DNA of 63,073 nucleotides, taken from the IMG/VR virus record IMGVR_UViG_3300043449_000393, positions 1-63,073 of that record; one strand, 5' to 3'. The position numbers and the translations under genes were made by a program. Source of the DNA: a virus (Duplodnaviria > Caudoviricetes). Position 1 is the stretch's first letter. Every line of letters starts with the position of its first letter. The notes beneath the pieces were generated by a model that did no database searches, was not told where the DNA came from, and saw only the letters and a program-made list of their open reading frames with translations. Shown in pieces: positions 7,717 through 62,165 of this stretch.

Positions 7717-7719
7717 AAT

Positions 7720-29979: not shown

Positions 29980-30162
29980 ATGTTCTTTGGGAGGAGGATG
30001 CCTGATCGGATTCTCGCAACACAGCTTTTCAGGGATTACCTCAACGATCAGTTGGAGGTTAGGTGGCGAGTACGAGGCGACCCAGTCGTCCACAGCATGC
30101 CATTTGAAACGTCAGATGAAGGAGTCATGGCCGCTCTCACCGCAATGAAACTCACATGCTAA
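29980..30162 (+). CDS. Small hypothetical protein (start uncertain)
   Basis: Fills the gap and overlaps the helicase start. Confidence 0.4.
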   Translation: MFFGRRMPDRILATQLFRDYLNDQLEVRWRVRGDPVVHSMPFETSDEGVMAALTAMKLTC

Positions 30163-31727
30163 TTCACAAAGAAAAGAAGGCGGTTGTCCTACGCCTCAAA
30201 AACCCAAGTCGGGTGACTACGGTTATCCCGACTGCCAAACTGGTCAGCCACAACGGATCGACACTGGTAGCAGTGCCACACAGACCTGACGAAACTCGGG
30301 TTCTTCGCAACTTAGGCTTTGAGGTTCCTGACCCCATGCCTATGCACTATGACTGGCCCAAGGTCAGCGGTCGCTACGACCCATTCGACGCGCAGCGTGA
30401 TACAGCATCGTTCCTGTCCATGAACAGCCGCGCCTTCTGCCTCAACGGTATGGGCACTGGCAAGACCAACAGCGCACTGTGGGCATACGACTACTTACGT
30501 CGTACCAAGCAGGTCAAGAAGGTTCTTGTGGTGTGTCCGCTGTCCACCATGGAGCGCACATGGGCCGACTCTGTGTTCAACACGTTCTCGCATCTTGATG
30601 CTGTCGTGCTGCACGGAACACGCGAGCGCCGTAACAAGCTGCTCAAGCAAGAAGTTGACGTCTACATCATCAACATCGACGGGCTGGCATCCATCAAGGC
30701 GGAGCTGGCCAAGAGACCTGACATTGATCTGATCGTCGTGGACGAGCTGGCTCTGGCTCGCAACTCTGGCACAGACCGGTGGAAGATTCTCAACGAGATT
30801 TGCAACAAGCAGACCACCCGCCGCGTGTGGGGCATGACAGGCTCGCCAACACCTAACGCACCAACCGATGCTTGGGCACAGTGCAAGCTTATAACGCCAG
30901 ACAACCAGAACGTGCCCAAGTATTTCAGCGCGTTCCGCGACAAGGTGATGCGCCAGCTGACGCAGTTCAAATGGATTGCCCGGCCCGACGCCAACGACAC
31001 CATCTACCAGATGATGCAACCTGCGATTCGGTTCTCGCTGGATGACTGTACCGACCTGCCTGAGCAGACCTTCATGACCCGTGAGGTTGCGCTGACACCT
31101 GAGCAAGCCAAAGCCTACAAGGACATGCTGTCCAAGCTGGCGACGGACTACCAAGGCGGTCAGATTCTTGCGGTCAACGAAGCGGTCAAGGCCAACAAGT
31201 TGATTCAGATCGCATGTGGTGTCGCGTACGGGACAGGTGGCGAAGAGATCGTCATCCCATCCAAGCCCCGGCTCGACGTGGTCAAGGAGATCATCGAAGA
31301 ATCCGAAGGCAAGGTCATCGTGTTTGTTCCGCTGACTGGTGCGCTCGAAAGCGTGGCGTCAGAACTGCGTAAGGACTGGGCGGTAGAAACGGTACATGGC
31401 GGCACAAGCAAGAGCGAACGTGACCGGATATTTGGCGAGTTTCAACGTAACGATGAACCCCGAGTACTGGTAGCCAACGCAGCAGCTATGAGCCATGGAC
31501 TGACCCTTACGGCGGCTACAACCATCGTTTGGTACGCACCAGTCCACTCGAACGAAGTGTACGAACAGGCCTGTGCCCGTGTACGCCGACCCGGCCAGAC
31601 GAGAACCACGGTGATCGTCCACATTGCAGGCACTGACGTTGAGCGTCGGGTCTACAAAAGACTTCAGGACAAGCAGTCCATGCAAGGGCTGCTGCTGGAG
31701 ATGATGAAAGAGCAGATCAAAGATTAA
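30156..31727 (+). CDS. SNF2-family (SF2) helicase
   Basis: MGTGKT, VVDE, MTGSP, HGLTLTAA, QACARVRRPGQ. Confidence 0.92.
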   Translation: MLIHKEKKAVVLRLKNPSRVTTVIPTAKLVSHNGSTLVAVPHRPDETRVLRNLGFEVPDPMPMHYDWPKVSGRYDPFDAQRDTASFLSMNSRAFCLNGMGTGKTNSALWAYDYLRRTKQVKKVLVVCPLSTMERTWADSVFNTFSHLDAVVLHGTRERRNKLLKQEVDVYIINIDGLASIKAELAKRPDIDLIVVDELALARNSGTDRWKILNEICNKQTTRRVWGMTGSPTPNAPTDAWAQCKLITPDNQNVPKYFSAFRDKVMRQLTQFKWIARPDANDTIYQMMQPAIRFSLDDCTDLPEQTFMTREVALTPEQAKAYKDMLSKLATDYQGGQILAVNEAVKANKLIQIACGVAYGTGGEEIVIPSKPRLDVVKEIIEESEGKVIVFVPLTGALESVASELRKDWAVETVHGGTSKSERDRIFGEFQRNDEPRVLVANAAAMSHGLTLTAATTIVWYAPVHSNEVYEQACARVRRPGQTRTTVIVHIAGTDVERRVYKRLQDKQSMQGLLLEMMKEQIKD

Positions 31728-31744
31728 CTACAAAGGAAACCAAA

Positions 31745-32128
31745 GTGAAATTATCTGAAGCAGTCGAGATGTATATCAAGATGCGCGACAAAAAAGCTGC
31801 GATGAAAGCTGAATTTGACGCTAGCATTGCACCCCTTAACGAGAAGATGGAAAAACTGGAAGCCAAGCTTCTGGACGTCTTCAATAAAACTGGCATGGAC
31901 TCTGTGAAAACTGAGTTTGGTACTGCGTACTCCACGGTGCGCACAACAGCCAGCGTTGCCGATCGTGAGGTCTTCATGGATTACGTGAAGGCCAACGAAG
32001 AGTGGAGCTTGCTCGAGACGCGTGTTTCCAAAACCGCAGTCGAGCAGTTCCGCGCCATCCATGACGACTTGCCTCCCGGAATCAATGTCCGTGAAGAGCG
32101 TGTAGTCAATGTCCGCCGTTCGTCGTAA
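31745..32128 (+). CDS. Conserved replication-region protein
   Basis: AAAGGA SD, GTG start; coiled coil then KTEFGT...LPPG. Confidence 0.75.
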   Translation: MKLSEAVEMYIKMRDKKAAMKAEFDASIAPLNEKMEKLEAKLLDVFNKTGMDSVKTEFGTAYSTVRTTASVADREVFMDYVKANEEWSLLETRVSKTAVEQFRAIHDDLPPGINVREERVVNVRRSS

Positions 32129-32154
32129 ACTCTCAACCTCAACCACCAAAGACC

Positions 32155-33102
32155 ATGAACATCATTCCTTTTGACAGTGGCAGCAAGCTGCCTGCGTACC
32201 TCAAGCAAGTTGACGTAGCATCCCTGAACTCCGACCTTACCAGCCACGCTGGCGGCGGCTTCCCCGCAATCTCCATCAAGGGCAAAGTCTTTGCCGTGGT
32301 GCGTGATGGCGAGCGCGAAGTTCTGCGTAACCCCAAAGACCCTGACAGCGCCGCGACCAGCTTGGACGTGGTGTTGCTTAAAGCCAACAAAGGCACAAGC
32401 AAGGTGTTCTACCTGAAGGGCTACAACCCTGAGCAGAGCGAAGGCCAGAAGCCTGACTGCTACTCCGGCGACGGCATCACACCCGCTGGCGATGCCAAGA
32501 CACCTCAAGCCAAGAAGTGCGCTACCTGCCCACACAATCAGTGGGGCTCGCGCATCACTGAGAAGGGTGCCTCCAAGGGCAAGGCCTGTAACGACACCGT
32601 TCGTATGGCTGTGGCTGCTGCGGGTCTGTTGAACGACCCCATGCTGCTGCGTGTGCCACCTGCATCCATCCGTGCGTTGGGTGAGTACGGTCAGACTCTG
32701 GCCAAGCGTGGCGCTGCGTACAACATGGTTGTCACCAAGGTTGCCTTCGACATGGACGCTGAGTCCCCCAAGTTGACCTTCAAGCCAGTCGGCTTCCTCG
32801 ACGACGCTGCATACGCAGAAGTCCAAGAGACCGTTGACTCGGACATTGTGGCCAGCATCTTGGGTGCCAGCTTCAACGCTGTCGAAGCCGCTCCTGCTGC
32901 CGAAGACACTGAAGTGCCCGAAGAAGCACCAGCCCCTGTGGCCAAGCCAAAGCCAGCTGCCAAACCTGCTCCGGTGCAAGCCGAAGAGGAAGCCCCAGCT
33001 CCTGTGGCCAAGCCAAAGCCAGCTGCCAAAGCTGCACCTAAGCCAGCTCCTGTTGAGGACGACCTCGATCTGGACTTGGACGGCATCAGCTTCGACGATT
33101 AA
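32155..33102 (+). CDS. Probable ssDNA-binding/annealing protein
   Basis: PDCYS, CATCPHN, GKAC Zn motif; acidic tail DDLDLDLDGISFDD; duplicated APVAKPKPAAK linker. Confidence 0.7.
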   Translation: MNIIPFDSGSKLPAYLKQVDVASLNSDLTSHAGGGFPAISIKGKVFAVVRDGEREVLRNPKDPDSAATSLDVVLLKANKGTSKVFYLKGYNPEQSEGQKPDCYSGDGITPAGDAKTPQAKKCATCPHNQWGSRITEKGASKGKACNDTVRMAVAAAGLLNDPMLLRVPPASIRALGEYGQTLAKRGAAYNMVVTKVAFDMDAESPKLTFKPVGFLDDAAYAEVQETVDSDIVASILGASFNAVEAAPAAEDTEVPEEAPAPVAKPKPAAKPAPVQAEEEAPAPVAKPKPAAKAAPKPAPVEDDLDLDLDGISFDD

Positions 33103-33144
33103 TCAACACGGGGAGCTTCGGCTCCCCACAACTTAGGAAACATC

Positions 33145-33354
33145 ATGAACTACAACATCAAACTCGAAATGAGCATGGACGCCAACTCTTTGAACACACT
33201 GCTCGGTACGCTCGGTAGTGGTCCGCACAACTTTGTGCGGCCTATCATAGACAACGTGCTGGCGCAAGCCAAGGAGCAAGAAGACGCTGCTAGGGCAGCA
33301 CAAGCTGCTACAACCACTGACGCCGAAGTCATGGAAGTCGGCGGCACTGACTGA
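33145..33354 (+). CDS. Small hypothetical protein
   Basis: AGGA SD; followed by a terminator. Confidence 0.6.
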   Translation: MNYNIKLEMSMDANSLNTLLGTLGSGPHNFVRPIIDNVLAQAKEQEDAARAAQAATTTDAEVMEVGGTD

Positions 33355-33374
33355 CTTTAGCGCCAAACCCAAGG

Positions 33375-33400
33375 AGCCCGCTTGCGGGCTTTTTCCTTTT
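33375..33400 (+). terminator. Rho-independent terminator
   Basis: AGCCCGC-TT-GCGGGCT then TTTT. Confidence 0.65.
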
Positions 33401-33448
33401 CTGGAGTAGTCATGAGTAGCAAAAAAACAACAGCGGGAGGGGAGAGCT

Positions 33449-36400
33449 ATGGACACCCTTGAATTTCTGAGAGTCATACTCCCTGAGCATGGCATCCACT
33501 ATCTGGCCCTGTTCAAAGAGGGCTACAAATTCCCCGCTCACAAGGTCTACACTGACCTTGAGACAATGGCCGAAGCCATCGAGGGTATGGCTGGCAGCAA
33601 GCAGCTGTCGGTGTACCACGCATGTGCGTCCTATCAAAAAGCCGTCATCGAACTGGACGAGCTGGACAAGAACGGCAACAACAAACGCAAGTATCGCATC
33701 CCTGAGAACTGGGACAAGGCCAAAGCATTCTGGGTGGACGTTGACTGCGGTCAAGAGAAGTTCGACAAGGGTCAGGGATACCTGACCAAGAAAGAAGCTG
33801 TTGTGGCCATGGCCAAGTTCGCCAAGGACGTCGGCATCCCACGCCCCATGCTTGTAGATTCAGGCAATGGCATCCATGCCTACTGGCCACTGACCCACGA
33901 GATTGGCCCTGAGCTGTGGCGCAAGGTCGCTACGGTGTTGAAGTCCACACTGGCCCACTGCAAGGTCATCGCTGACCCAACCCGTACAGCTGACTTTAGC
34001 TCCATCCTGCGCCCCGTGGGTTCGACCAACCGTAAGAACGGCGACGCCAAGACAGTCAAGGTGCTGGCCACCTGCGAAGCCATTGACCCGAAAGAGTTTG
34101 CTACGCCGCTGTTTGCCTACGCCAAAGAGAATGACGTCAAACTGATTCGCGAAGCGCCCAAGAAGCAGTACAACAACGACCTGAACTCTGACCTGACTGC
34201 CCACCTGCCGCAGTACCCTGAGATTCCCGCCGATGCAAACGTCATGGCCGACAAGTGCCAGCAAGCCGCTACGATGCGCGACACCATGGGTGACGTGGAG
34301 TACGAGGTCTGGCGTCGTGTCATCGGTCTGCTTACCTTCTGCGAAAGTGGTCGGGAGACTGCCCAAGCATGGACGTCCAACCGCGAAGAGTCTGGCCATA
34401 CCAGCCTTGACTGGGATGTGAAGTACGACACGTGGAACGCTGGCCCCAGCACCTGCGAGTCTTTCCAGAGCTGCAACCCGGATGGCTGCAATGGCTGCCA
34501 GTTCAAGGGCAAGATCACCACCCCGCTGCAACTGGCTAGGGTTATCCCTGAGCCCGAAGAGACCGTTGAGGAGACCGTCAACGAAGAAAGCGTCACCGAG
34601 GAAGTGTCCATCCCTGCGCTGCCCCGTGGCTACCAGTGGGACTCGGGCTTGCTCAGCCGCTTATTGCCAGACAAGGAGGGTGTCCTCCAAGCGTTCCCGT
34701 TCTGCGAGAACCTGTTCTACCCCATGACCCGTATCCGTGGTGAAGACGGCACGTTCCGTTATGGCATCCGTCTGCACCTGCCCGACAAGCGCATCCGTGA
34801 CTTCGAGATTTCCGGTGAGTCTGTGGCGTCGCCAACCGACTTGCTTCGGGCCATGGCCCGCTACGAACTGACCAAGAGCAACCACAAAAACGCAGGAGAG
34901 CACATGGCCGCGTATCTGCTGGACCAGCTGCAGTCACTCAAGCGCAGCATCACTGAGACCAACACCCTCACATCGTTTGGCTACAAGGACGACAACAAAG
35001 CGTTCCTATTAGGGGAAACCCTATACGAAGCGGACGGTTCGGAGCGCAAAGTTTTGGTCGGCGGCAACGCCAAGGAGCGCATGGCCACGTTCAAGAACGG
35101 TCGAGGCAGCTTGGAAGGCTACGCCAAGGCTCTGAACTTCATGTACAACCGACCCGGAGCTGTTCACTGGCAGTACACCATCTGCTCTGGCTGGGGCTCA
35201 CTGCTTGCCCACCACTGCGAAGACCTGTACAAGGGCTTGATTCTGGCCCTGCAAGGCGGCGAGTCAGGTCGCGGCAAGACCACGGTATGTCACGCTGCGC
35301 TGGCTGCGTTTGGCAACCCTGAGAAGTTGACCCTGAACTCCAAGGACGGCTTCACCACCAACGCTCTGTGGGCGACTCTCGGTGTGTTCAACAACGTCCC
35401 AATTCTGGTGGACGAGCTCACGGGCATGGACTCTGCTGTGTTCAGCGACGTTGCATACGGCGTGTCGAATGGCCAAGACAAAGTTCGCCTCACATCCAAG
35501 AATGGCGGCGTGGTGTTTGCCAAGTCGTCGGAGTGGCGTCTGAACGTGTACATCACCGGAAACCGGGATTTCTACGGTCTGCTGGCAGCCAACCAAGCCA
35601 ACTCACAGGCAGAAGCTGTGCGCTTGATTCAGCTGAACGTTGATCGCTACGAAGGCCTGATGCTGGTTGATCGCGCAAACTACCCCAAGACACCCGAGGG
35701 CAAGAAGGCATGGGAAGCTGCTTCAGGTCTGGTTGCTGCGGAGCACATCAAGAAGATGACCGCCAACTCCGGCCATGCCGGTGCTGCGCTGATTCAGTAC
35801 ATCTTGGCCAACCACGATGAAGTCCACAAGGACATACACACCATGCTCGGCAAGTTCACCGAGGTGCTATCCAACCCCAAGTTCCGCTTCTACCGTGCGC
35901 ACAGCGCCTGCACCATCGTGATCGCCAAGATCGCTCGCAAGCTGGGCATCATGGAGTTCGACATCAAGGAGATGTACAAGTTCACCGTGAACCTGTTGCG
36001 CGAGCTGTCTGAGTCTGTGGCTGAGAACAATACCGTGACCTCAGAGGACGCCTTCCAGCGCATGGTCAGTATCTTGAGCTCTCGAATTATTGTCACTACC
36101 GAATGTCGCGATCGTCGTGATGGACGCGGCCCTGAGACTCCGCGCAACCGAATCAACGGCCCGATCGCTGGCCGCTACATCTTGGGCAGCCAGAGCAGCA
36201 AAGAGTTCGCTGGGCGGTTGATTCTGTCTCAGAAGGAAGTGCGCGACTGGTGCATGGCCAACCGCATGGACTTTCACTCGATGATGAAAAGCTTGCAGGA
36301 CGCCAAAGCCTTGGTGGCTCAGGGCGACAAGTTCGTTATCACTCGGGGGACTGACTGCCCATCCATGCAGACTCGCTGCATCATCGTTGACATGCACAAG

Positions 36401-36478
36401 CTGAACGCAGAGGCCAACGCCCCTGTACTGTCTCTAGTCACCAATCAATTTGACGGGGAAGCTGCTGAAGCAGTATGA
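33449..36478 (+). CDS. Primase-helicase (RepB/AEP-type primase, Cys cluster, DUF927-like P-loop domain)
   Basis: WVDVD, DSGNGIHAYW, ILRPVGS, CxxFxxxNPxxCxxC, Walker A GESGRGKT, Walker B LVDE. Confidence 0.9.
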   Translation: MDTLEFLRVILPEHGIHYLALFKEGYKFPAHKVYTDLETMAEAIEGMAGSKQLSVYHACASYQKAVIELDELDKNGNNKRKYRIPENWDKAKAFWVDVDCGQEKFDKGQGYLTKKEAVVAMAKFAKDVGIPRPMLVDSGNGIHAYWPLTHEIGPELWRKVATVLKSTLAHCKVIADPTRTADFSSILRPVGSTNRKNGDAKTVKVLATCEAIDPKEFATPLFAYAKENDVKLIREAPKKQYNNDLNSDLTAHLPQYPEIPADANVMADKCQQAATMRDTMGDVEYEVWRRVIGLLTFCESGRETAQAWTSNREESGHTSLDWDVKYDTWNAGPSTCESFQSCNPDGCNGCQFKGKITTPLQLARVIPEPEETVEETVNEESVTEEVSIPALPRGYQWDSGLLSRLLPDKEGVLQAFPFCENLFYPMTRIRGEDGTFRYGIRLHLPDKRIRDFEISGESVASPTDLLRAMARYELTKSNHKNAGEHMAAYLLDQLQSLKRSITETNTLTSFGYKDDNKAFLLGETLYEADGSERKVLVGGNAKERMATFKNGRGSLEGYAKALNFMYNRPGAVHWQYTICSGWGSLLAHHCEDLYKGLILALQGGESGRGKTTVCHAALAAFGNPEKLTLNSKDGFTTNALWATLGVFNNVPILVDELTGMDSAVFSDVAYGVSNGQDKVRLTSKNGGVVFAKSSEWRLNVYITGNRDFYGLLAANQANSQAEAVRLIQLNVDRYEGLMLVDRANYPKTPEGKKAWEAASGLVAAEHIKKMTANSGHAGAALIQYILANHDEVHKDIHTMLGKFTEVLSNPKFRFYRAHSACTIVIAKIARKLGIMEFDIKEMYKFTVNLLRELSESVAENNTVTSEDAFQRMVSILSSRIIVTTECRDRRDGRGPETPRNRINGPIAGRYILGSQSSKEFAGRLILSQKEVRDWCMANRMDFHSMMKSLQDAKALVAQGDKFVITRGTDCPSMQTRCIIVDMHKLNAEANAPVLSLVTNQFDGEAAEAV

Positions 36479-36479
36479 T
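36450..36479 (+). promoter_or_regulatory. sigma70 promoter at the 3' end of the primase gene
   Basis: TTGACG-N18-TATGAT. Confidence 0.6.
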
Positions 36480-36484
36480 CCACG

Positions 36485-36555
36485 GGCCGGTTGTCATGGC
36501 CGGTTCCTTTGTGGTTGATGAACTCGCCCCCGGCTTAAACACCGGGGGCTTTTTT
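36485..36555 (+). ncRNA. Candidate ~70-nt sRNA with an anti-Shine-Dalgarno seed
   Basis: Promoter, 5' hairpin, UUCCUUUGUGGUUGAU seed, intrinsic terminator. Confidence 0.5.
36526..36555 (+). terminator. Rho-independent terminator ending the plus-strand block
   Basis: GCCCCCGG-CTTAAACA-CCGGGGGC-TTTTTT. Confidence 0.88.
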
Positions 36556-36734
36556 CACTTCTTACCTTTGTGCATGCCGGGCTCAAACTTCTTCTCCATG
36601 GCGGCGTAAGCCTTCTTGGAGGGAGCCATTTTCTTCTCGGCAGCTTCCATCTTCTTGGATTCGCCTTTACCAAATGGGTTGGCTTTGGCTTTGTTGGTAG
36701 CGGTACGTTGACCGCGCATTGGCATCGACTTCAT
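36555..36734 (-). CDS. Small basic (Lys/Met-rich) protein
   Basis: GGAG SD; MKSMPMRGQRTATNK. Confidence 0.7.
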   Translation of the reverse strand: MKSMPMRGQRTATNKAKANPFGKGESKKMEAAEKKMAPSKKAYAAMEKKFEPGMHKGKK

Positions 36735-36753
36735 GGGAATCTCCAGTTGGGGG

Positions 36754-36987
36754 TTAGCGGTACTTCGCGGTTTTTGCAGCAATCTTTTTGGGTTGCGCTA
36801 CAAACTGTTTGCCTTGCGCCTTACCTGCACGCTTGGCCTTGGTCGTTTCTGCATACTCAGCAGGACTCAGTGATTTGATGGCGGCTTCTGGCAAGTACCG
36901 CTCACCCGTTTTAGAGGACGGCTTGCCACTTTTTGTTCGCCATTTAGCGTCCGTCCAGTCCTTCAGAGATTTTTGAGGGGCTTTCAA
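36754..36987 (-). CDS. Small basic protein, C-terminal half of a DUF5872-like pair
   Basis: TTG start overlapping the upstream TGA; QKSLKDWT-KWRTKSGK, GERYLP, GKQFV. Confidence 0.7.
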   Translation of the reverse strand: MKAPQKSLKDWTDAKWRTKSGKPSSKTGERYLPEAAIKSLSPAEYAETTKAKRAGKAQGKQFVAQPKKIAAKTAKYR

Positions 36988-37172
36988 TCTCGATACCCCC
37001 CACCAGCAGCCTTGTATTTCTTGGCTACGAGCTGTGCCTTGCGGGCAGACCACTGACCCGCACCAGTGCCTTGGGTAGCTGCGGCTTTTACCTGAGACAC
37101 AATCCGCCTGCGCATCTCGGGTTTGGTGTAGTTGCCAGCAGCGTTGACTGTAGATTTAGACTTGGTGGCCAT
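36984..37172 (-). CDS. Small basic protein, N-terminal half of a DUF5872-like pair
   Basis: NYTKP, GQWSARKAQL, YKAAGGGY. Confidence 0.75.
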   Translation of the reverse strand: MATKSKSTVNAAGNYTKPEMRRRIVSQVKAAATQGTGAGQWSARKAQLVAKKYKAAGGGYRD

Positions 37173-37173
37173 G

Positions 37174-37428
37174 TCAGCACTTCCACGCACGCAACGACTT
37201 GTTGATGCGGCTGTTGGGGTCGTTGGCAGTTTTGGCGCTGGTCAACTTCTCCTTCATGCCTTCCATTCTGGCACAAAAAGAGTCCTTGCGGGGACCACCT
37301 TCGGGTTGAGGAGCCTTGAGTCCCGGCTTGCCGGGGTTAGCTTTATTGTAGGAGGCACGCCCTTTGGCGTTGAGCCCACCCTTGGGGTCTTTGCCTTCTT
37401 TGCGTGTCCATGCAGGTGTCTTAGCCAT
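37174..37428 (-). CDS. Small basic conserved phage protein (DUF6321-like)
   Basis: GGLNAKGRAS, SFCARM, SRINKSLRAWKC. Confidence 0.75.
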   Translation of the reverse strand: MAKTPAWTRKEGKDPKGGLNAKGRASYNKANPGKPGLKAPQPEGGPRKDSFCARMEGMKEKLTSAKTANDPNSRINKSLRAWKC

Positions 37429-40400
37429 TAGATTTGCTCCTCAACGAATCGTTTGTTTGCCTTGTTGAACTGTACACCATCAACGACTTGCCGCTCACGC
37501 TTGGCTTGAGACTGTGGAGCCTTAAGCAATTCAGACAGTGGTTGGCGAGTGTAGCCGTTCTTGACTCTGGCTTCCTGCAGCTTTGCCCACGCATCGCGAG
37601 CTTCAGCCGTAGACTCACCAGCGCGGATGGCCTTGATGTAGTCAGCCTTGACCTTGGTAGACCGGTCTTGGTAGAACTGGTTCATCTCCAGCGTGTTCTG
37701 CTGGCGTTCCATTATCACGGACTGCTGGACTGGCTGAATACCCATGGCCTGCACAACAGCTTCCCAAGCACTGACCTCCGACGCTGGCAGTACTATGTCA
37801 CCGTTACGGCGTGTCATTCCTTGCGTGGAAATGCGGTAAGCCTTGGCGGCGTCACCCAGACCCTTGGGGAGAACTTGCTCCATGCCCTTGTACCATTCAC
37901 CGCTGAGCATCTGGCCGAGGCCGTCAGCCACACGAGCGGCCATACCAACTGGAGCGCCGCCCAGCAAAGTACCAGCAGCCTCAATCACGCCGGACTTGGT
38001 AGTCAGGTCAGCTTGGCTGAACGGCATGATGGACAGCATGTTGCCTGCGCCCACTTTGCCAGAGATGTCCACACCAGCCAGCGTCGGAGCACCGCGCATG
38101 ATCAAGTTGGCCATGTCCTCGTCGCCGATAAACTTGCGCAACTCAGCTGTGACATCCAATGGATCGTCGTCATCACCGAACAGAGCTCCGATAGCCCAAG
38201 CAATCGCGGAGTAGCCGGGCAAGCCCATGGCACCAGCCAGCAATGCAGTGTGGCCAAGTGAGTAGGCCAGAGCCTTGGTAGCTGCGAGTTTTTCTTTGCT
38301 GTCAAAGCCAGCGTCCTTGAGCAGCTTGGCGTAGTACGTCAGCTGAATCAACTGGAACTTGCGGAACTGCAACGCCACCTTGCCGACTGGATTGTTGAAG
38401 AATCGTGGGGCGTTGAACGCCGAGTAGTCACCATGGGTCTCAGTCAGGATGCGGTCAGCGTAGTTGATGGCGGCTTCTTTGTCACCAGTCTTGGCCAACT
38501 CCAAACGGTATGCAGCCATGGCTGTGGACAAGCGGTTGATAGATTCAACCTTCTGCACGGCAACACGCAAGAACTTATCGACCTTGTTCCAGCCTTTGCT
38601 GAACGCGCTATCGCCGTCGATCTTGAACTCGCCCAGTTCGGTCTCCAAGCCAATGTCGATCTTGCCTCGATTGGCCAGCTCTTGGATGGCGTCGCGCACG
38701 TCGGCAGGAACCTTGCTAAAGTCAAACTGCTGGTCGTACCGAGCAGACTTCATAACGTTGCCCAGCTGGCTGTACGCTGTGAACAACGCAGTGGAGGTCT
38801 TGGTGTAATCGTGGCGACCGGCCATGGCTGGAACCGACATCATCCAAGGCTGTGTCAAGTTCTGCATGTAGTACGCAGGGCTTGTGGCCAAGAAGTAGAT
38901 CGAGCTTAGGCGCGTGACCTTGCTGATAGCTGGAATAGGCTTGACGTCCAACGATGAGTCGTATCGGCGCGTGATCTCATTCAGAATTTCTGACTTGCGG
39001 TTCAAGTCACCGCTGCCAGCGTTTTCCTCTTTGCGCATGGCCTGAATCACGTCTTGCACCTGTGGGTTGTACTCCACGGACGCCACGAAATTGGCATCAG
39101 CGCGACCCTGAGAGGCAAACGAGCGCAGCATGTCGATCTCACCAGACACACCACGGCGACGCATCTCTGACTTACGAGCGCTACCTTCGGCCAAAGCCTG
39201 CAGGTACATGTCACTGACCATGCGTTGAATCTGAGCTGCGCCTTTGTCGCCAGCGTTGGCCTTGGCGTCTGCCATAGCACGCAGTCGGGTAATTGCGCCA
39301 AGTGAGTCACGGCTACCGAACAACTCTTTGTCAGCAACAGAACGCTCTTTGAACGCAACCGTGCCGCCGTTAAAATGGCCTTGGGCGGTCAACTGGTCTG
39401 CCAAATTGCGAGCTTCATTCTTGGTCTCAGTGAAACTCACGTGGTAGTGGTCTGGGTCTTTCTCCAGACGAGACAGCAGTTTAGTGTCGTTGGCAGCCTT
39501 GGCAGCAATGTACTCTTTGGACTTGGCCACAACAACATGGTCGCCGAAGCGCTTGATTGGAGCGTACGGGATGCCCTCACGAATCTTGAACAGTCGAGCA
39601 AATCGCTTCAGGTCGTTGGCCTTCTCTTTGACCAACTTGGCTTTCTTCAGTGGATCAGTCTCGGCGGCAATGCGAGCGTCGTACTCGGATGTGGCGTAGT
39701 CCACCACAGCCTTCTTCTTGGCCGACAACATCTTGTCACCGTGGGCAAAGATAGCCTTGGCATACGCTTGAGCCTTCGGGCCCAGTGCGTTGAACATCGC
39801 AGCCATCTTAGGGTCAGCCTTAAAGGTGCCCTTGTCGTAGCCCCACTTGCCGGTGCGGGTGGACTCAAAGAGGAACTGGTTGACGCTGTTGGGGCCGTCG
39901 CCTTTGTTGGCTTCTTCGATGGTTGCGTACATGTCAGCAACGCGCTCGACTTCGCGCTCCAAGGAACGAGCCTTGGTATCACGCTTGGCCAACAGGCTTT
40001 CAAACGTAGCGGCAGACTTGATGCCGACATCCACAGCTCGCTTGATGAGATCGCTGGTAAACACCACGCGGTCCAAACCCTGACGAACCCAGTCGCCGAT
40101 GGTGTTGATGCTGTCACTCACAGGCTTTTGGGCCTGCTCAGGCAGCTTGGAGACGGCCTTGTTTACTTGGGCTTGTCGGCTGGCTCGAGAAACTGCGCCA
40201 ACAGGCTGCGTGCCTTGCTGTCCAGCTTGAACTTGTCCTGACTGAGCACCTTGCTGGGCACCTTGGGCGCGTTGGTAGTTTGTGGCTTTGACTTGTTCAT
40301 GTGCTTTCTCCATAAAAGCGTGTGTTGCTGGCAGGTTATCACGGAGGAAATCCATGCCGCCGTTCATGTTTGAGAAAGCCCACACCTGTGCAAAGACTTC

Positions 40401-43400
40401 CTCACGCAGTTCTTGCATAGTCAACGAGCGGTTCTCTGCATCCGACATGTCGAGCGGATAGTTAAGCAAATAGCCGATGGGCGAAGTTTCGCTGCTGTCA
40501 TCAAAGTGGTTCAGGATTTCGTCCATAACGGAACCGGGGCGCAGGGCCAACAGCTCGCCGTTAACACGAGAGACCTTGAACTCCTTGTCGTTAGAGAACT
40601 TACCAGCGCCGCCCTCAACAGCGTCGATGCCATGACCGACTTCGTGGAGCGTAGCAACGGTCGCCAGCTGCTTGTCCTTGAGAATCAAGCCGTTATAGAT
40701 GATGGTGCGTTTGCCGTCAATCACGGTGTAGAGTGCGTCCCACTTTACAGGAGAGAACGTAACCATCCAAGAGTCAATGGCATCAACAGCGTTGCCCATG
40801 CCCATGTTCTGCAACCCACGGATACCGGCGGCAATACCTTCGGAATAGCCCGACAAGTCGTCGAGCGAAGCCTCAACGGACTCAAACTCAGTCCCGCTCT
40901 GGTCAGCAGTGCGGACGCTACGACGCGACTTACGAGCAAACTTGGTCAACTCAGTCTCAACGTCAGCCTTGGTCCAGTTGCCTTCACCGAAGCCGATGAA
41001 TGTGTTCTGCTGAGCCTTGGTCAGGTCAGCGAACTTGGGAGCTTGCGGATACTCAGAAGCGACTACATCCCACGCTTGGGCTGCTTGCTCGGCTTGAGTA
41101 AGGATGACGCTTGGGGCTTGGGCTTTACCTTCTGCGGCAGGCTTTTTGACACGCCGTACTTGTCCGCCCACTCCTTTGCCAGTTTCGGCTTCTGGCTGAA
41201 CAGATACGCTTGTTGGGCTTTTGACTTGAACGGCATTGGTTTTCTCCAGTTTGGCCAGTTTGACGGACAGCTCTTTGGTCTGTCCGCTTTGGAACGCCAC
41301 AGTCACCGTGGTCGCATCGCCATCACCGGCAAAACTCTTGACCACACCAGTACCCAGCTTGGGGTTCATAACGGTGTCGCCAACAGCCAGACCTTTGCGA
41401 TCAGCTTCCAGCTTGGCAGCACGCTCAGCGCGGAACTTGGCAGCCTCAGCTTCTTTGGCAGCGTCTTTTTCCTCAGCAACCACTTGAGCAGCTTCAGTCT
41501 TGGCTTTGCCTTTCTTGCGCTCACCTTTTGTCTTGGTAGCGTTGGCCACCAGAGCTTCGTATTTAGCGGTCAGGCTTTCAATTTGTTCAGCAGCCGCAGC
41601 AGCGGCTTGTGGCAGATTCAGCTGTTGTAGCTCTTCGGCAGCAGTTCGCAGTGCATCAATAGAGTCAGCAATGGCCACCAGATCGACGGCCATTTGGCTA
41701 CCAGCGGTACTGGCTTTTTGCCATTCGCGGGCGTCGTCCATGGTCGAGAACGCTTCACCAGCCTCGCCCTCAAACCCCATGTCCTTCAGCGCAGCGGCCA
41801 AGTCGCCGGATTCGATATTGCCTTTGACGCGATCAATTTGCTCGCTGAGCTCGGACATGCGATCAATATCAGCCTGAGTTGGCTTGCCCTTGGACTCAAG
41901 GCGGCTCAGTTCGCCTTCCAACTTACCCAGTTCGGTAGCGGCTGCTTTTTTGGCAGACTGAATGCCGAGGCTATCAAACACTTGGCTGCGGTCAAACCCC
42001 ATGGATGTCGCAATGTTTGCGAGCAACTCAGGGTTGCCGATCTGTCGCACACGAGACTCTGCAATACCAAAGGACGCAGCGATCTCCTTGGCAATGTTGC
42101 CTTTGTACCCTTCGGGCACAGACCGACGCGCCGTGATGTAGGCGTTCAAGATTTGGCGGTCGCGCTCTTTGTCTTTGGATTTAGACAGGTGCTGCTCGAT
42201 AACAGCTTCCAAGTCGTCCGCCGTAAAGTCAGTCTGGTTGCCGCGCAAGCCAGCTTCGTCTTCCAACACAGCATCAATGCCACCAGCGTTGCCGGTCATC
42301 CGGGCAATGTCAGCGATGTTTGTGATGTCAGTCTCGCCGGGCAGCTTTTCCTGCTTGGGCAGACGCAGAGTCGTGTTGGGCTTTATCGCAGGGGCGGCAC
42401 TTGGGACGGTGGTTGTGGTTTGTCCTTGCGGCGCTGTTTGGATGGTTTGAGAGGCTTGAGTGCCACTTGGGGCTCCAGTAGTTACAGTGGTAGTCGGTTG
42501 GCCGGGGGTGACTGAAAGAATGCCAGCTTCTCGAAGTGGGGCTCCAGTTGTTGGGGTAGCTCCAACCACCGCTCCTGCGACAGGAGCAGCTGGTCCTGCA
42601 TTTCCCACAGTTCCTTGAACGTCAACGCCCCCGACTCCCACGCCTCCTGCAGGCTGCTGTACAGTAGAAACTCCTGTGCCACGTGGACTCCTTGCGCGGA
42701 TGATTTCACCGACTGCCTTACGGGCGTCGACAAGCTTACTACTGGCCAGAGCATTCAGAACAGGCTCAGCTTCTGGCGAAGCAGGATCAATGCCCTTGGA
42801 CACCATGTATTCATAGATGCCGCGAGTACTCTTGGTAGGCTTGATGCCGTGGCCGTTGAGCTCCTCATCCAGTGGACTGAAGATCGAAGGCGCAGCGGGC
42901 TTGGTTTCCGCAGCAGGTGCGGCGGCGGTAGGAGCAACCTCAGCAGGCGTAGCCGCAGGCGCGGTCAGGTCTGTCTCTTGACTGAGAATGGTCGGTGTTA
43001 CCAGCGATGACCCAGCGTAAGCCCCACCAAGCAAATTGGCGTTTGCGTATGGGCTGCCCATCAGCGAAGCTGTATCCAGCCCGGTCAGGGTTCCAGTTCG
43101 TGGCGCTGGAGCTTGTTGCTCCGTGCTTGTGTCTGGCTGGGTCAAGTCAATTTGACCCGACTCAGGGCGTGGGGCTCGAATACCACCAACGCCGCCCATT
43201 AAGCCGCCAAGAGTAGCTCCGCCTACGAACGAGTCCAAATAGCGTTTGTTGGCCTCCTCATTGAACAGTGTCTCGTTGGGGTTGACCGCCATACGACCGG
43301 CGTACTGGTTGATCATTTCTTGGCCGGTTTCGCCAAGGCTTTCGCCCACCGTACCTTCAGCAATTCCAGTGGCTACGCGGCGACCAATACCAGCTTCGCC

Positions 43401-44087
43401 CCGAATAAGTGGTCGCAGGCCACGAGCTGCCATACCCTCAACGCCAACAGCATTTAACGCAGCATAGGGGATACCGCCGAGAGCTGCGGCTCCAAGGTTT
43501 TCACCGCCAGCTTCGCGCTGAGCAGACAGGATGTCACCAACTGCACTGGGATAGCTAGCACCGACAGCACCTGCGGTAGCGGCAGCAGCGCGGCCAAGAC
43601 CCATTCGAGCCGCAGTACCGCCCAAAGCCAAACCGCCAGTCAGACCGCCAGCTACAGCCTCGCCAAGATATGGAAGCGACTGGGCAGCTAGACCACCGGC
43701 ATAGTTAAGGGCGCTGCCAACACCAGTAATGTCACGCCAGTCTTCAACGCCACCGAGCTCACGGGCGCGTTGAGCCGCATAGGCAGCGGCACTTTCATTA
43801 GCAGCACGACGTTGGTCAAACGCTGCGGCTGTGTCCTCCGCACCAACACCTCGAGCAATAGCTCCGCCAAGGCCGAGCAGGTTAGCTTGGTACTGGTCAA
43901 TGCCAGCAGAGATACGACTGCCTGTAAGACCGCGCTTAGCGCCCCCATACCCTATTTCAGCTGCGTAATCGTCTAGTGAAGGGTAGTAGCTTTTGTACTG
44001 TTGGAAGGTGCTTTGCAGAATATCTTCGTCAGTGAGGTTTTCAAGACCGCCATTGGCTTTACGAATATCTGCAATGGAACGTGGCAT
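37428..44087 (-). CDS. Giant polyvalent internal virion/ejection protein, 2219 aa
   Basis: Last of three ejection-type genes; Gly/Ala hydrophobic N-terminus, HTH, Tudor-like domain, HEVGH metallopeptidase, PLxRFG-like YAPIKRFG, conserved helical C-terminus. Confidence 0.85.
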   Translation of the reverse strand: MPRSIADIRKANGGLENLTDEDILQSTFQQYKSYYPSLDDYAAEIGYGGAKRGLTGSRISAGIDQYQANLLGLGGAIARGVGAEDTAAAFDQRRAANESAAAYAAQRARELGGVEDWRDITGVGSALNYAGGLAAQSLPYLGEAVAGGLTGGLALGGTAARMGLGRAAAATAGAVGASYPSAVGDILSAQREAGGENLGAAALGGIPYAALNAVGVEGMAARGLRPLIRGEAGIGRRVATGIAEGTVGESLGETGQEMINQYAGRMAVNPNETLFNEEANKRYLDSFVGGATLGGLMGGVGGIRAPRPESGQIDLTQPDTSTEQQAPAPRTGTLTGLDTASLMGSPYANANLLGGAYAGSSLVTPTILSQETDLTAPAATPAEVAPTAAAPAAETKPAAPSIFSPLDEELNGHGIKPTKSTRGIYEYMVSKGIDPASPEAEPVLNALASSKLVDARKAVGEIIRARSPRGTGVSTVQQPAGGVGVGGVDVQGTVGNAGPAAPVAGAVVGATPTTGAPLREAGILSVTPGQPTTTVTTGAPSGTQASQTIQTAPQGQTTTTVPSAAPAIKPNTTLRLPKQEKLPGETDITNIADIARMTGNAGGIDAVLEDEAGLRGNQTDFTADDLEAVIEQHLSKSKDKERDRQILNAYITARRSVPEGYKGNIAKEIAASFGIAESRVRQIGNPELLANIATSMGFDRSQVFDSLGIQSAKKAAATELGKLEGELSRLESKGKPTQADIDRMSELSEQIDRVKGNIESGDLAAALKDMGFEGEAGEAFSTMDDAREWQKASTAGSQMAVDLVAIADSIDALRTAAEELQQLNLPQAAAAAAEQIESLTAKYEALVANATKTKGERKKGKAKTEAAQVVAEEKDAAKEAEAAKFRAERAAKLEADRKGLAVGDTVMNPKLGTGVVKSFAGDGDATTVTVAFQSGQTKELSVKLAKLEKTNAVQVKSPTSVSVQPEAETGKGVGGQVRRVKKPAAEGKAQAPSVILTQAEQAAQAWDVVASEYPQAPKFADLTKAQQNTFIGFGEGNWTKADVETELTKFARKSRRSVRTADQSGTEFESVEASLDDLSGYSEGIAAGIRGLQNMGMGNAVDAIDSWMVTFSPVKWDALYTVIDGKRTIIYNGLILKDKQLATVATLHEVGHGIDAVEGGAGKFSNDKEFKVSRVNGELLALRPGSVMDEILNHFDDSSETSPIGYLLNYPLDMSDAENRSLTMQELREEVFAQVWAFSNMNGGMDFLRDNLPATHAFMEKAHEQVKATNYQRAQGAQQGAQSGQVQAGQQGTQPVGAVSRASRQAQVNKAVSKLPEQAQKPVSDSINTIGDWVRQGLDRVVFTSDLIKRAVDVGIKSAATFESLLAKRDTKARSLEREVERVADMYATIEEANKGDGPNSVNQFLFESTRTGKWGYDKGTFKADPKMAAMFNALGPKAQAYAKAIFAHGDKMLSAKKKAVVDYATSEYDARIAAETDPLKKAKLVKEKANDLKRFARLFKIREGIPYAPIKRFGDHVVVAKSKEYIAAKAANDTKLLSRLEKDPDHYHVSFTETKNEARNLADQLTAQGHFNGGTVAFKERSVADKELFGSRDSLGAITRLRAMADAKANAGDKGAAQIQRMVSDMYLQALAEGSARKSEMRRRGVSGEIDMLRSFASQGRADANFVASVEYNPQVQDVIQAMRKEENAGSGDLNRKSEILNEITRRYDSSLDVKPIPAISKVTRLSSIYFLATSPAYYMQNLTQPWMMSVPAMAGRHDYTKTSTALFTAYSQLGNVMKSARYDQQFDFSKVPADVRDAIQELANRGKIDIGLETELGEFKIDGDSAFSKGWNKVDKFLRVAVQKVESINRLSTAMAAYRLELAKTGDKEAAINYADRILTETHGDYSAFNAPRFFNNPVGKVALQFRKFQLIQLTYYAKLLKDAGFDSKEKLAATKALAYSLGHTALLAGAMGLPGYSAIAWAIGALFGDDDDPLDVTAELRKFIGDEDMANLIMRGAPTLAGVDISGKVGAGNMLSIMPFSQADLTTKSGVIEAAGTLLGGAPVGMAARVADGLGQMLSGEWYKGMEQVLPKGLGDAAKAYRISTQGMTRRNGDIVLPASEVSAWEAVVQAMGIQPVQQSVIMERQQNTLEMNQFYQDRSTKVKADYIKAIRAGESTAEARDAWAKLQEARVKNGYTRQPLSELLKAPQSQAKRERQVVDGVQFNKANKRFVEEQI
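40163..40300 (-). CDS. Nested +1-frame ORF D, 45 aa, basic
   Basis: GGAG-N7-ATG; MNKSKPQTTNAPKVPSKVLSQDKFKLDSKARSLLAQFLEPADKPK. Confidence 0.55.
   Translation of the reverse strand: MNKSKPQTTNAPKVPSKVLSQDKFKLDSKARSLLAQFLEPADKPK
41063..41236 (-). CDS. Nested +1-frame ORF C, 57 aa, MPFKS-type small basic protein
   Basis: GGAG-N7-ATG; MPFKSKAQQAYLFSQKPKLAKEWADKYGVSKSLPQKVK... Confidence 0.75.
   Translation of the reverse strand: MPFKSKAQQAYLFSQKPKLAKEWADKYGVSKSLPQKVKPKPQASSLLKPSKQPKRGM
42383..42466 (-). CDS. Nested +1-frame ORF B, 27 aa, basic
   Basis: GGAG-N6-GTG; MALKPLKPSKQRRKDKPQPPSQVPPLR. Confidence 0.5.
   Translation of the reverse strand: MALKPLKPSKQRRKDKPQPPSQVPPLR
42482..42682 (-). 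CDS. Nested +1-frame ORF A, 66 aa, acidic and helical
   Basis: AAGGAG-N5-GTG; MAQEFLLYSSLQEAWESGALTFKELWEMQDQLL... Confidence 0.65.
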   Translation of the reverse strand: MAQEFLLYSSLQEAWESGALTFKELWEMQDQLLLSQERWLELPQQLEPHFEKLAFFQSPPANRLPL

Positions 44088-44148
44088 GGCAACAACCTTG
44101 TCTTAATCTAGGTAGCTAGTATAAAGTCGTTTGCCATGCCGGACAACA

Positions 44149-60181: not shown

Positions 60182-60513
60182 CAGAAGTCCTGACGCAGCT
60201 TGAACTTGAGCAAGTCGTACACAGTCTGAATGGTGCTGTCAGCGAACGTGATCTCGATCTCACCTTCGTAGTCACCGGGGGCCCCATCAAGCGATGTGGG
60301 TTCATCAGACCAATCAAATACCACAGTACCTGCTGCGCCGTTGGTCACAGTGCCAACAATCGTGGCCTGCAGCGTGGTAGCTCCAGCAGCTCGGAACTTC
60401 AGGCGAACTGTAGCCCCGGTGATGTTGATCGCAGCGCCAGTCGTAGAGTCTGTGAGGGTGGTTACGAGGCTTGGGCGGGTGTCGCCCTGAACCAGTCGAA
60501 TCTTTTCGGCCAT
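60181..60513 (-). CDS. Small Ig-like virion protein (copy 2)
   Basis: Homolog of 898..1230. Confidence 0.65.
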   Translation of the reverse strand: MAEKIRLVQGDTRPSLVTTLTDSTTGAAINITGATVRLKFRAAGATTLQATIVGTVTNGAAGTVVFDWSDEPTSLDGAPGDYEGEIEITFADSTIQTVYDLLKFKLRQDF

Positions 60514-60522
60514 GATATTTCC

Positions 60523-61182: not shown

Positions 61183-61190
61183 GATTTACC

Positions 61191-61823: not shown

Positions 61824-61834
61824 GGTGGGCTACC

Positions 61835-62110: not shown

Positions 62111-62128
62111 GTGTGTTCTCCAAAAATG

Positions 62129-62152
62129 AAAAAGGGCCCCGAAGGGCCCTTT
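62129..62152 (-). terminator. Terminator after capsid (copy 2)
   Basis: GGGCCC-TTCG-GGGCCC followed by TTTTT on the minus strand. Confidence 0.8.
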
Positions 62153-62165
62153 ACTGTATCACCGA

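Follow-up and report, generated by a model that had tools for sequence, protein, structure and literature searches.

The DNA analysed here (the window) is a stretch of 63,073 nt from an uncultured freshwater phage of the Caudoviricetes (IMG/VR record IMGVR_UViG_3300043449_000393). Directly 3' of its primase gene lies a segment, 36450-36555, that looks like a very short gene with its own promoter and terminator. A preliminary description had taken it for a small RNA (sRNA) complementary to ribosome-binding sites (RBSs) of the phage itself. Is this segment an RNA gene and, if it is, which phage gene would its RNA act on? The promoter, spacer, terminator, target strings and 19-aa ORF quoted in that description were all found in place in the window. 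The stretch of the RNA that would contact a target is called the seed below, and SD stands for Shine-Dalgarno sequence.

Position and distribution of the unit

A predicted RNA gene of ~70 bases directly 3' of the primase gene is common to the window phage and dozens of its relatives. The primase gene (33449..36478, + strand) encodes a DUF927 primase/helicase-like protein of 1009 aa, and its 3' end holds the predicted promoter. The unit was kept after this gene in relatives with primase identity down to ~41%. Relatives were located in one Pseudomonadota MAG and, partly, in one Limnohabitans genome. A megablast search of 35900-37100 against the phage collection gave zero matches. The nearest named phage by protein was Pseudomonas phage Rollin (25% identity), which is uninformative on the unit because its homolog is followed by two further genes and by no gap. 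Literature searches turned up no publication on this group of phages, nor any that describes an sRNA following a DUF927 primase gene.

The unit persisted where its downstream context varied. In the window it is followed by a convergent late operon, and in the L089 relative by HTH_17 (excisionase-like) and integrase genes; an integrase is thus absent beside the unit in the window and present in a related clade. A + strand gene begins a few bases past the terminator in L040-L043, L045, L077, L085, L089 and L099. This arrangement would suit a promoter-proximal terminator cassette or attenuator for downstream + strand genes in the style of the lambda PR'/6S RNA arrangement, acting on the excisionase-like gene of temperate relatives, with the window copy as a leftover. 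We regard such a cassette as very improbable, as the terminator of the window clade faces the end of the convergent late operon with the unit fully conserved, and the covariation of seed and target described below would be left unexplained.

Predicted promoter

The -35-like hexamer TTGACG (36450..36455, + strand) lies within the final codons of the 1009-aa gene. The -10-like hexamer TATGAT (36474..36479, + strand) overlaps the end of the same gene, whose stop codon TGA (36476-36478) falls inside it. Both hexamers were assigned by consensus scan and conservation, and the spacer between them is 18 nt. With 10 of 12 consensus matches, TTGACG-N18-TATGAT was the top promoter-like site in 30000-45000, equalled by one other site. 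The scan detected 10 promoter-like sites in this range, compared with 5.5 +/- 2.4 in shuffled sequences.

Both hexamers were invariant in 18 close relatives despite varying C-terminal residues. The background invariance of the 1009-aa gene in these relatives was 16-19% for third codon positions and 2% for hexamers. Distant clades carried a TTGxCx-type hexamer at the same position, and a TAnnAT-type -10 (CATAAT in one clade) was found 38-57 nt upstream of the terminator in 49 of 50 distinct sequences. Across the 50 sequences, the stop codon varied in type (TGA, TAA or TAG) and shifted by -8 to +14 nt relative to the -10 hexamer; the best promoter-like match had an 18-nt spacer in 38 of them and a score of at least 8.5 in 35. 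For 24 of 34 loci, the promoter score at the fixed position ranked among the highest 5% of the background (median fraction 0.005). By these comparisons, the predicted promoter is conserved as nucleotides rather than as codons. Since the hexamers and their 18-nt spacing are kept independent of the end of the reading frame, they are hard to explain without a promoter.

The element could also lack a promoter of its own and be no more than a 3' untranslated region of the mRNA from the primase operon, acting inside that mRNA or after nuclease processing, which is the route of 3'-UTR-derived sRNAs. Because the terminator of the unit also ends the mRNA of the 1009-aa gene, the element is part of each operon transcript, and the long operon mRNA would carry both target sites described below as well. 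Some distant clades (L051, L055-L058, L068, L069) had weak promoter matches, scoring 6.5-7.5, and still kept the complementarity of seed and target; L076 had a seed-like stretch without a convincing promoter. We nevertheless consider a promoterless origin unlikely, given that the hexamers and the 18-nt spacing are kept at synonymous or non-coding positions in most clades.

Hairpin, seed and terminator

The predicted sRNA (36485..36555, + strand) is ~70 nt long, with its start placed from the position of the -10 hexamer and its end at the U-tract. A 5' hairpin with CAUG in its loop (hairpin 1; 36484..36506, + strand) was assigned by folding and covariation. It is followed by the seed (36502..36521, + strand), a C/U-rich anti-SD stretch and then a G/U-rich stretch, assigned by pairing and by covariation with the target. 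In the minimum-energy fold of the window, the seed was partly paired in a weak second hairpin. The intrinsic terminator (36526..36555, + strand; GCCCCCGG-loop-CCGGGGGC then T6) has eight G-C pairs and an 8-nt loop and was the first-ranked terminator-like site in the scan; relatives carrying the unit have a terminator with 4-7 T.

On 23 diverse sequences, 92% of the cells of hairpin 1 were paired, all five pairs showed compensatory (both-side) changes, and the covariation score was matched by none of 500 shuffles. The order of 5' hairpin, seed and terminator recurred across relatives with very different stem sequences. A covariance model (R1) found a single strong copy in the window (64.8 bits; runner-up 14.7 bits) and one copy in each of the five complete relatives. 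The promoter-to-terminator unit on the + strand is therefore conserved by sequence across relatives, as the preliminary description would lead one to expect. When the whole window was scanned with cmscan, no Rfam 15 family, c4 included, reached its gathering threshold.

On the minus strand, the same letters read AAAGGAA-N6-ATG, which could start a small gene, 19 aa long in the window, or a mini-ORF that has to be translated; this had been offered as the alternative to an sRNA. A good SD and ATG were present in close relatives and in one distant clade. The peptide was not conserved and the nucleotide unit was: the ORF had 7, 10, 17, 18, 19, 52 or 56 aa in two frames, with 19 aa in 11 of 22 sequences, and L059-type relatives lacked the ATG and had a degraded SD with the unit still kept. 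The L089 clade has no late operon running into the unit, and the ATG can be explained as mirroring the start codon of the target in those clades whose predicted pairing extends from SD to AUG. A minus-strand translation start is therefore scarcely credible. Neither the 22 sequences nor the L059-type relatives had a conserved gene or initiation region opposite the unit, as a cis-antisense RNA of the sar or OOP type would.

Other functions were considered for the unit. A replication origin or primer RNA was rejected, as iterons were absent by eye and the covariation would be unexplained. A mimic of the initiator tRNA anticodon loop was rejected because the loop geometry did not fit. An N4-type hairpin promoter was set aside as well; there was no incidental hint of a virion RNA polymerase.

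One of the 17 runs listed was an RNA library (share of sampled words, 0.06). Metatranscriptome contigs of a relative ~90-95% alike covered parts of 34502-36637 and 37464-37969. One 450-nt contig covered 36195-36637; the contigs come without ends or strand and may include DNA carry-over. Bins 36644-37313 had zero depth in that RNA library in these contig-level data.

Predicted pairing with the 31745 initiation region

The main predicted target (31722..31747, + strand), assigned by pairing and covariation, comprises a CA-rich stretch, the SD AAAGGAA and the GTG start of a 127-aa gene (31745..32128, + strand). Bases 36504-36519 pair with 31723-31738 over 16 contiguous nt with two G-U pairs. This run, which had been pointed out in the preliminary description, is real. 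It was the longest, with the fewest G-U pairs, on either strand outside the locus itself and the best contiguous trans match in the window.

With the 31745 initiation region, the seed formed 18 pairs in two runs separated by a one-base bulge (-24.2 kcal/mol), an energy matched by none of 1000 mononucleotide shuffles of the seed. When starts were corrected, this region ranked 2nd of 98 crude initiation regions. A first test set the seed against a list of 99 crude initiation regions that omitted 31745 and 32155, whose starts were mis-called. There the seed did no better than flank-shuffled seeds retaining the UCCUU core, 0.13 to 0.82 of which were as extreme.

A genome-wide scan of duplex energy did not single out the target, as 412 of 31402 33-nt windows scored equal or better in the DNA analysed. 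The corresponding counts in other genomes were 57/29864, 78/29864, 553/29865, 864/29694 and 22/29149. GC-rich coding windows frequently outscored the target under this permissive energy. Because of the 412 windows, the evidence from this DNA alone is suggestive, not decisive.

Covariation of seed and target

We compared the seed of each relative with its own and with exchanged initiation regions of the Gp157-like gene, the ortholog of the 31745 gene. For 30 representatives, the mean energy was -19.9 kcal/mol for own pairs and -13.3 kcal/mol (sd 0.75) for swapped pairs; 0 of 5000 permutations reached the own-pair mean, with shared descent uncorrected. When the 20 distinct seed types were used, 0 of 20000 permutations reached the own-pair value, again uncorrected for shared descent. 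Restricting the target to bases -30 to -14, upstream of the SD, gave z -5.3 and 0 of 5000 permutations under the same lack of correction. These counts are not true probabilities because relatives inherit both partners. Control initiation regions were flat (primase, z -1.55, 323/5000; helicase, -0.1; DUF6321, +0.2).

The boxes upstream of the SD differed by clade, and each was mirrored in the seed of that clade. By sequence comparison across ~30 diverged relatives, the predicted seed changes together with the start region of the 31745 ortholog, and the target that had been rated highest for this locus is thereby upheld. SD-like complements are common and such duplex energies are frequent genome-wide, as would be expected if the unit were a terminator only and its resemblances to RBSs had arisen by chance. 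The conservation and covariation across ~50 distinct sequences make chance a most implausible explanation.

The covariation could instead arise at the DNA level, if a phage protein bound the 31745 start region and an inverted copy after the primase gene and its specificity shifted between clades. Identical DNA copies are expected to give neutral strand tests, and both tests were neutral. The mean energy was -19.9 for the sense strands; the complementary strands gave -19.74, with 11 better, 17 worse and 2 tied, and the best ungapped matches contained 11 wobble-compatible and 11 A-C differences. The complementary segment, in turn, changed its position: it covered the upstream bases and the SD in the window clade, ran from SD to AUG in L042/L045, and was split into two boxes in the 41-43% clade. 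Since the segment slides along the initiation region, RNA pairing fits better than a fixed protein site. The segment is also split by bulges of differing size between clades, always includes or abuts the SD, and lies between a conserved promoter and terminator oriented to make the antisense strand; by eye, the window shows no palindrome typical of a dimeric operator. A protein-binding motif is accordingly an improbable cause.

Other candidate targets and target proteins

The initiation region of the next gene (32132..32155, + strand) was examined by duplex energy and covariation. This gene (32155-33102, + strand) encodes a 315-aa protein and was considered from the pairing of its initiation region. 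The seed paired there with -17.8 kcal/mol, a value reached by 27 of 1000 shuffled seeds. The comparison of own and swapped pairs gave z -5.3 for this site, yet it ranked poorly in most single genomes. The 32155 gene is thus a possible, weaker second target on these sequence comparisons.

The strings near 12330, 24550 and 22031 that had been proposed as further target sites are present in the window as quoted. Two of five relatives searched had an ortholog of the 24569 gene, but its start region was not comparable. In three of the five the 12350 gene had an ortholog; only the closest relative showed good complementarity (-28.0 kcal/mol), and the values for the remaining two were -10.9 and -15.5. 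In the L033 and L048 relatives, neither the 12350 match nor the 24569 match was kept. The proposal that the RNA silences several early or middle genes is therefore not borne out: covariation was seen only for 31745 and, more weakly, for 32155, and the 12350 and 24569 sites were not conserved. The suggestion of a repressor-free lysogeny gained no support from the analysis. Overall, the earlier interpretation is partly supported.

The product of the main target gene is probably a 127-aa Mu Gam/Sipho_Gp157-like protein by the profile matches of its orthologs. PF22709 was matched by all 21 orthologs (E <= 0.01; best, 3.2e-8), DUF7307 by 20 of the 21; the copy in the window scored 25.2 bits against the Pfam model, whose cut-off is 27. 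Against profiles of solved structures, the 127-aa protein gave hits at E >= 0.27 only, and a Foldseek search with its model (mean pLDDT 84) returned nothing informative and no hit at E <= 0.001.

The 315-aa protein had no hit against profiles of solved structures, and its model (mean pLDDT 60) had none at E <= 0.001 in Foldseek. In Foldseek it came closest to a phiC31 integrase-RDF fusion chain (E 1.9e-3); weak hits to OB-fold single-strand-binding proteins ranked next (E 0.1-1). This protein has an SSB-like acidic tail.

Proposed mode of action

We propose that 36450-36555 encodes a small non-coding RNA, ~70 nt in length. A sigma-70-like promoter of the host type within the last primase/helicase codons would start the RNA, which would fold its 5' hairpin, expose the C/U-rich and then G/U-rich stretch and stop at the intrinsic terminator. 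The exposed stretch would pair with the initiation region of the 31745 gene, ~4.7 kb upstream on the same strand. Pairing would span the SD and the preceding CA-rich bases, in some clades also the spacer and AUG, and in some clades the seed may pair with the 32155 initiation region as well. Covering the SD would keep the 30S subunit off and lower translation of the target gene or genes. The same sequence also forms part of the 3' untranslated region of the long operon transcript and could act from there additionally.

Since the exposed stretch changes in step with the RBS of one gene, the RNA most likely lowers translation of that gene. As an explanation of the whole locus, we give a promoter-driven ~70-nt sRNA that pairs with the 31745 initiation region and lowers its translation a probability of roughly 0.6. 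The sequence features, their conservation and the covariation within the hairpin and between seed and target are shown by the sequences; that the RNA is made from this promoter, that pairing occurs in the cell and is repressive, and the time at which it would act, we infer.

A wider role can be put forward as a tentative and rather doubtful idea. The sRNA would shut off a Gam-like end-protection protein, in some clades together with its SSB-like-tailed neighbour, and so act as a conserved post-transcriptional switch on DNA-end handling. The switch would operate once transcription of the replication operon is complete, or it would hold these proteins silent in temperate-clade lysogens. In the course of evolution, the site of pairing could drift freely within the initiation region. 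If such a switch exists, it would be the first phage module for recombination or replication mode under sRNA control, and its compensatory sRNA/target pairs would form a large natural series among uncultured phages.

According to PMC12197685, few phage sRNAs with phage targets are known, mostly from a handful of model temperate phages. The sRNA proposed here would be an uncharacterised RNA gene kept across a wide group of uncultured freshwater phages. Its many natural 'compensatory mutation' pairs would indicate one target ahead of experiment, and it would provide a handle on the stage of infection that requires the Gam/Gp157-like protein. As to annotation, the short interval that follows the DUF927 primase gene of these phages would contain more than a terminator.

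Comparison with known phage RNAs

c4 RNA lies in the same operon as its targets, and its differences between P1 and P7 are compensatory. According to PMC12197685, c4 of P1 and P7 pairs around the RBS of a phage mRNA and blocks translation, with complementary parts that differ between related phages. The present unit is like it in being a predicted phage RNA complementary to a phage RBS region, with complementary parts varying among relatives. Unlike c4, it sits downstream of its target, at a distance of 4.7 kb, and has its own apparent promoter and terminator. A Gam/Gp157-like gene, and not an antirepressor system, is the predicted target, most carriers have no integrase within the stretch examined, and the window contains no sequence or structure match to c4 at the Rfam gathering threshold.

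The sar RNA and its target lie on opposite strands of one locus. PMC12197685 gives sar of P22 as a promoter-to-terminator RNA of ~69 nt that pairs with the ant initiation region and lowers translation. The present unit resembles sar in its predicted layout, size and kind of target site, and differs in that its opposite strand has no conserved gene and its co-varying target is elsewhere.

OOP RNA runs from promoter to terminator at the 3' end of a phage gene, between converging transcription units. PMC12197685 describes OOP of lambda as 77 nt long. The unit in the window is likewise a predicted promoter-to-terminator RNA at the 3' end of a phage gene between converging units. OOP is antisense to the overlapped gene cII and works with RNase III, whereas the present unit overlaps the upstream gene by its promoter only and runs in the same direction.

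VpdS of VP882 and PreS of lambda are described as Hfq-dependent trans-encoded phage sRNAs with mRNA targets (PMC12197685; bioRxiv 10.1101/2024.10.31.621285). The target of PreS is host dnaN, and VpdS alters phage and host mRNA levels and represses or competes with host sRNAs for Hfq; the only target supported here is a phage gene. We read the unit as a new phage sRNA family of a known, c4/sar-like kind.

Genomic context and anatomy of the unit

The window spans an entire virus record of 63,073 bases. Late and virion genes lie on the minus strand (1–10.7 kb and 36.55–63 kb), and plus-strand genes extend from about 11.4 to 36.5 kb. The unit sits at the convergent junction between a plus-strand gene of 1009 aa (33449–36478), called the primase gene here because of its matches to DUF927 and to PHROGs annotated as primase or primase/helicase, and the small gene that ends the minus arm. 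The terminus of this late arm (36555–37428, minus strand) encodes four small basic proteins, one matching DUF6321, a domain that corresponds to the C-terminal portion of far longer PHROG profiles. The two ends of the record (1189–3790 and 60472–63073) are diverged copies with identical gene order and 82.7% identity over 2.6 kb, and reflect either a circularly permuted assembly that joined two strains or a true duplication.

The preliminary description read 36450–36555 (plus strand) as the gene of a small RNA complementary to ribosome-binding sites of the phage, and every string that it quoted was found where it had been placed. TTGACG-N18-TATGAT (36450–36479; 10 of 12 consensus matches) was the top-listed promoter-like site of the 30–45 kb region, and the terminator (36526–36555) was top-listed among terminators in the same scan. 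The −10 hexamer contains the TGA stop codon of the primase gene. The predicted fold of RNA starting at about 36485 (−30.1 kcal/mol, z −2.55) has a 5′ hairpin (hairpin 1), then the C/U-rich stretch within a weak second hairpin, and finally the terminator. The C/U-rich stretch, complementary to the Shine-Dalgarno (SD) sequence, and the following G/U-rich stretch form the predicted seed (36502–36521).

Distribution of the unit and conservation of the predicted promoter

A DNA search of the named phage collection gave no close relative of the window. In IMG/VR, 23 related loci were obtained by protein search alone and 80 by profile search, with primase identities from 88% down to 26%; loci with a relative of the primase gene are designated by L and a number. 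The same kind of unit occupies the gap after the primase gene down to about 41% primase identity. Weaker traces are present in L072 and L076 (39%), and the unit is absent from relatives at 26–27% and from L074 and L079–L081, where another gene directly follows the primase. With a covariance model of the unit, the window gave a single strong hit (64.8 bits; next best 14.7), and each of five complete relatives gave one copy. No Rfam family matches the unit at gathering thresholds.

In 18 close relatives, whose primase genes share 78–84% of nucleotides, the final ten residues of the protein are variable, yet both TTGACG and TATGAT are invariant; the background in the same gene is 16–19% invariant third codon positions and 2% invariant hexamers. 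In distant clades the protein ends differ, and the stop codon (TGA, TAA or TAG) moves relative to the end of the −10 hexamer, from 8 nt downstream of it to 14 nt upstream; one clade carries TTGACA-N18-CATAAT. Among 50 distinct sequences, the best promoter-like match had an 18-nt spacer in 38, scored at least 8.5 in 35, and ended 38–57 nt upstream of the terminator in 49. Scored at a fixed position, the promoter fell within the top 5% of background windows at 24 of 34 loci (median fraction 0.005), and was weak in the L051/L055–L057 clade and a few others. This pattern of conservation suggests that the hexamers behave as a promoter.

Hairpin 1 and the minus strand

Single-sequence folds of 20 diverse members mostly gave a 5′ hairpin, a short C/U-rich region and the terminator. 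The hairpin stems were unrelated in sequence between members, and no clear 5′ hairpin was seen in L044, L045 and L085. In a 23-member alignment, 92% of the hairpin cells pair, five of five pairs are changed on both sides, and no shuffle out of 500 covaried as strongly. Pairing is missing from three rows, those of the window's subclade, in which the 3′ arm is one base out of register in this alignment. Judged from the alignment, the 5′ hairpin appears to be a conserved structure.

The preliminary description also offered an alternative, in which the seed is the ribosome-binding site of a 19-aa minus-strand peptide. SD-N5/6-ATG is readable on the minus strand of close relatives. The peptide was rejected: the open reading frame is 7, 10, 17, 18, 19, 52 or 56 aa long in two frames across relatives, and L059-type relatives have no ATG at that place.

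At five loci (L026, L030, L031, L033 and L046), hairpin 1 is complementary through its loop and 3′ arm, over 12–13 nt with 1–2 G-U pairs, to the start region of a minus-strand 68-aa gene, the ortholog of window gene 36984–37190; in L046, the hairpin and this start region differ together. Hairpin 1 of the window has no match to the start of its own 36984–37190 gene. After the primase stop of L040, L041 and L110 there is a variant of the unit with the promoter-like sequence GTGACA-N18-TATGAT and a 10-nt match to the start of the phage's own Gp157-like gene. This variant has neither the 5′ arm nor the loop of hairpin 1, and its 3′ part is longer and different.

Covariation of seed and predicted target

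The preliminary description paired the seed over 16 nt with 31723–31738, the ribosome-binding site of the 31745 gene (127 aa), and no contiguous match elsewhere than at the locus itself proved better. When gene starts are corrected, the initiation region of this gene pairs with the seed at 18 positions, in two runs around a one-base bulge (−24.2 kcal/mol). The region is second among 98 initiation regions, and its energy was reached by none of 1000 shuffled seeds; against the set of initiation regions without the 31745 gene, the seed was flat. At the same permissive energy, 412 of 31,402 windows genome-wide score as well, and thus the match in the window alone is not decisive. Matches to the 12350 and 24569 genes, also proposed as targets, are not retained beyond the nearest relative.

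The decisive evidence for the target is the comparison of seed and target across relatives. For each locus, the initiation region of the 31745 ortholog, whose product begins with MKLS in the window and most relatives and with MKIS or MKLN/MKLD in some, was compared with the seed of the same phage. In almost all clades one mirrors the other, with letters that differ by clade. The match covers 15–17 nt upstream of and across the SD in the window subclade. In the 41–43% clade it falls into two boxes, one at the SD and one, specific to the clade, upstream of it. In L042, L045, L077 and L089 it spans the SD, spacer and AUG, which accounts for the retention of CAU in the hairpin loop. L099 and L040/L041 show additional variants.

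Own pairs of 30 representatives averaged −19.9 kcal/mol, compared with −13.3 (sd 0.75) for seeds swapped with the starts of other phages. The own value was reached in 0 of 5000 permutations and, for 20 distinct seed types, in 0 of 20,000, all of which ignore shared descent. With the SD left out (bases −30 to −14 only), z was −5.3 and 0 of 5000 permutations, likewise blind to shared descent, reached the value. Control starts of other orthologs were flat in the same test (primase z −1.55, helicase −0.1, DUF6321 +0.2); therefore, the covariation is no general per-phage "flavour" of ribosome-binding sites. The start of the neighbouring 32155 gene gave z −5.3 for the whole region, only −2.7 upstream of the SD, and ranked poorly in most single genomes; this gene is a possible second target, clearest in the 41–43% clade.

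Two tests able to reveal the plus-strand RNAs as the pairing partners were neutral, one by energy (sense pair −19.9 versus −19.74 for the complementary strands) and one by mismatch type (11 wobble-compatible versus 11 A-C differences). Contigs of the only RNA library containing related sequence show neither ends nor strand.

Products of the predicted target genes

All 21 orthologs of the 127-aa protein matched the Mu Gam/Sipho_Gp157-like Pfam model (best 3.2e-8), and 20 of 21 matched DUF7307; the window's copy scores slightly below the curated Pfam cut-off. Its structure model comprises a 47-residue helix and a small alpha/beta domain, with no clear relative among solved structures. Four cysteines are conserved in the 315-aa protein (32155–33102), which also has a long linker rich in Pro and Ala and an acidic tail with ISFDD as its last residues. 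Acidic tails of this type are typical of single-strand-binding proteins. This protein has no Pfam match, and its fold matches were weak: a phiC31 integrase-RDF fusion chain came first (E 1.9e-3), ahead of weak matches to OB-fold single-strand-binding proteins.

Proposed action and comparison with known RNAs

The unit most likely specifies an RNA of about 70 nt that blocks translation of the Gam/Gp157-like protein. This RNA would be made from a host-type promoter located where the replication operon ends, and the 3′ end of each operon transcript has the same sequence. The seed would base-pair to the SD region in the message of the Gam/Gp157-like gene, perhaps also in that of its neighbour, and so block ribosome binding. 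The anatomy of the unit, its conservation, and the covariation of the hairpin and of the seed/target pair are observed directly; we infer that the RNA is transcribed from this promoter and pairs in vivo, as well as the direction of its effect and any role in timing.

Genomes that look lytic retain the unit, among them the window, in which the terminator adjoins the late operon. So does a clade that carries an integrase gene (PF00589) and an HTH_17 excisionase-like gene shortly downstream of the unit; therefore, its role would be independent of lysogeny. In this 52–60% clade, the HTH_17 gene lies on the plus strand between the terminator and the late operon (L089, L040–L043, L045, L077, L085 and L099), with the RNA unit directly upstream; in L089, the locus examined (region 7074–8211), a minus-strand tyrosine integrase lies there as well. 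Because of these genes beside the unit, the relatives of this clade look temperate. L110 belongs to a Pseudomonadota MAG, on a contig of 119 kb, and is thus probably a prophage. L113, a contig of the cultured Limnohabitans sp. Hippo3, encodes a relative of the first 364 primase residues (70% identity) with an unrelated C-terminal part, a hint at the host group of these phages.

The literature searched contained nothing on this phage group. According to the review PMC12197685, the c4 RNA of P1/P7 and the sar RNA of P22, both encoded by phages, each cover the ribosome-binding site of a phage message, and the proposed action of the unit is alike. The unit belongs to none of the curated families of Rfam. 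Unlike sar and OOP, which are antisense to a gene at their own locus, the unit is not directed against such a gene.
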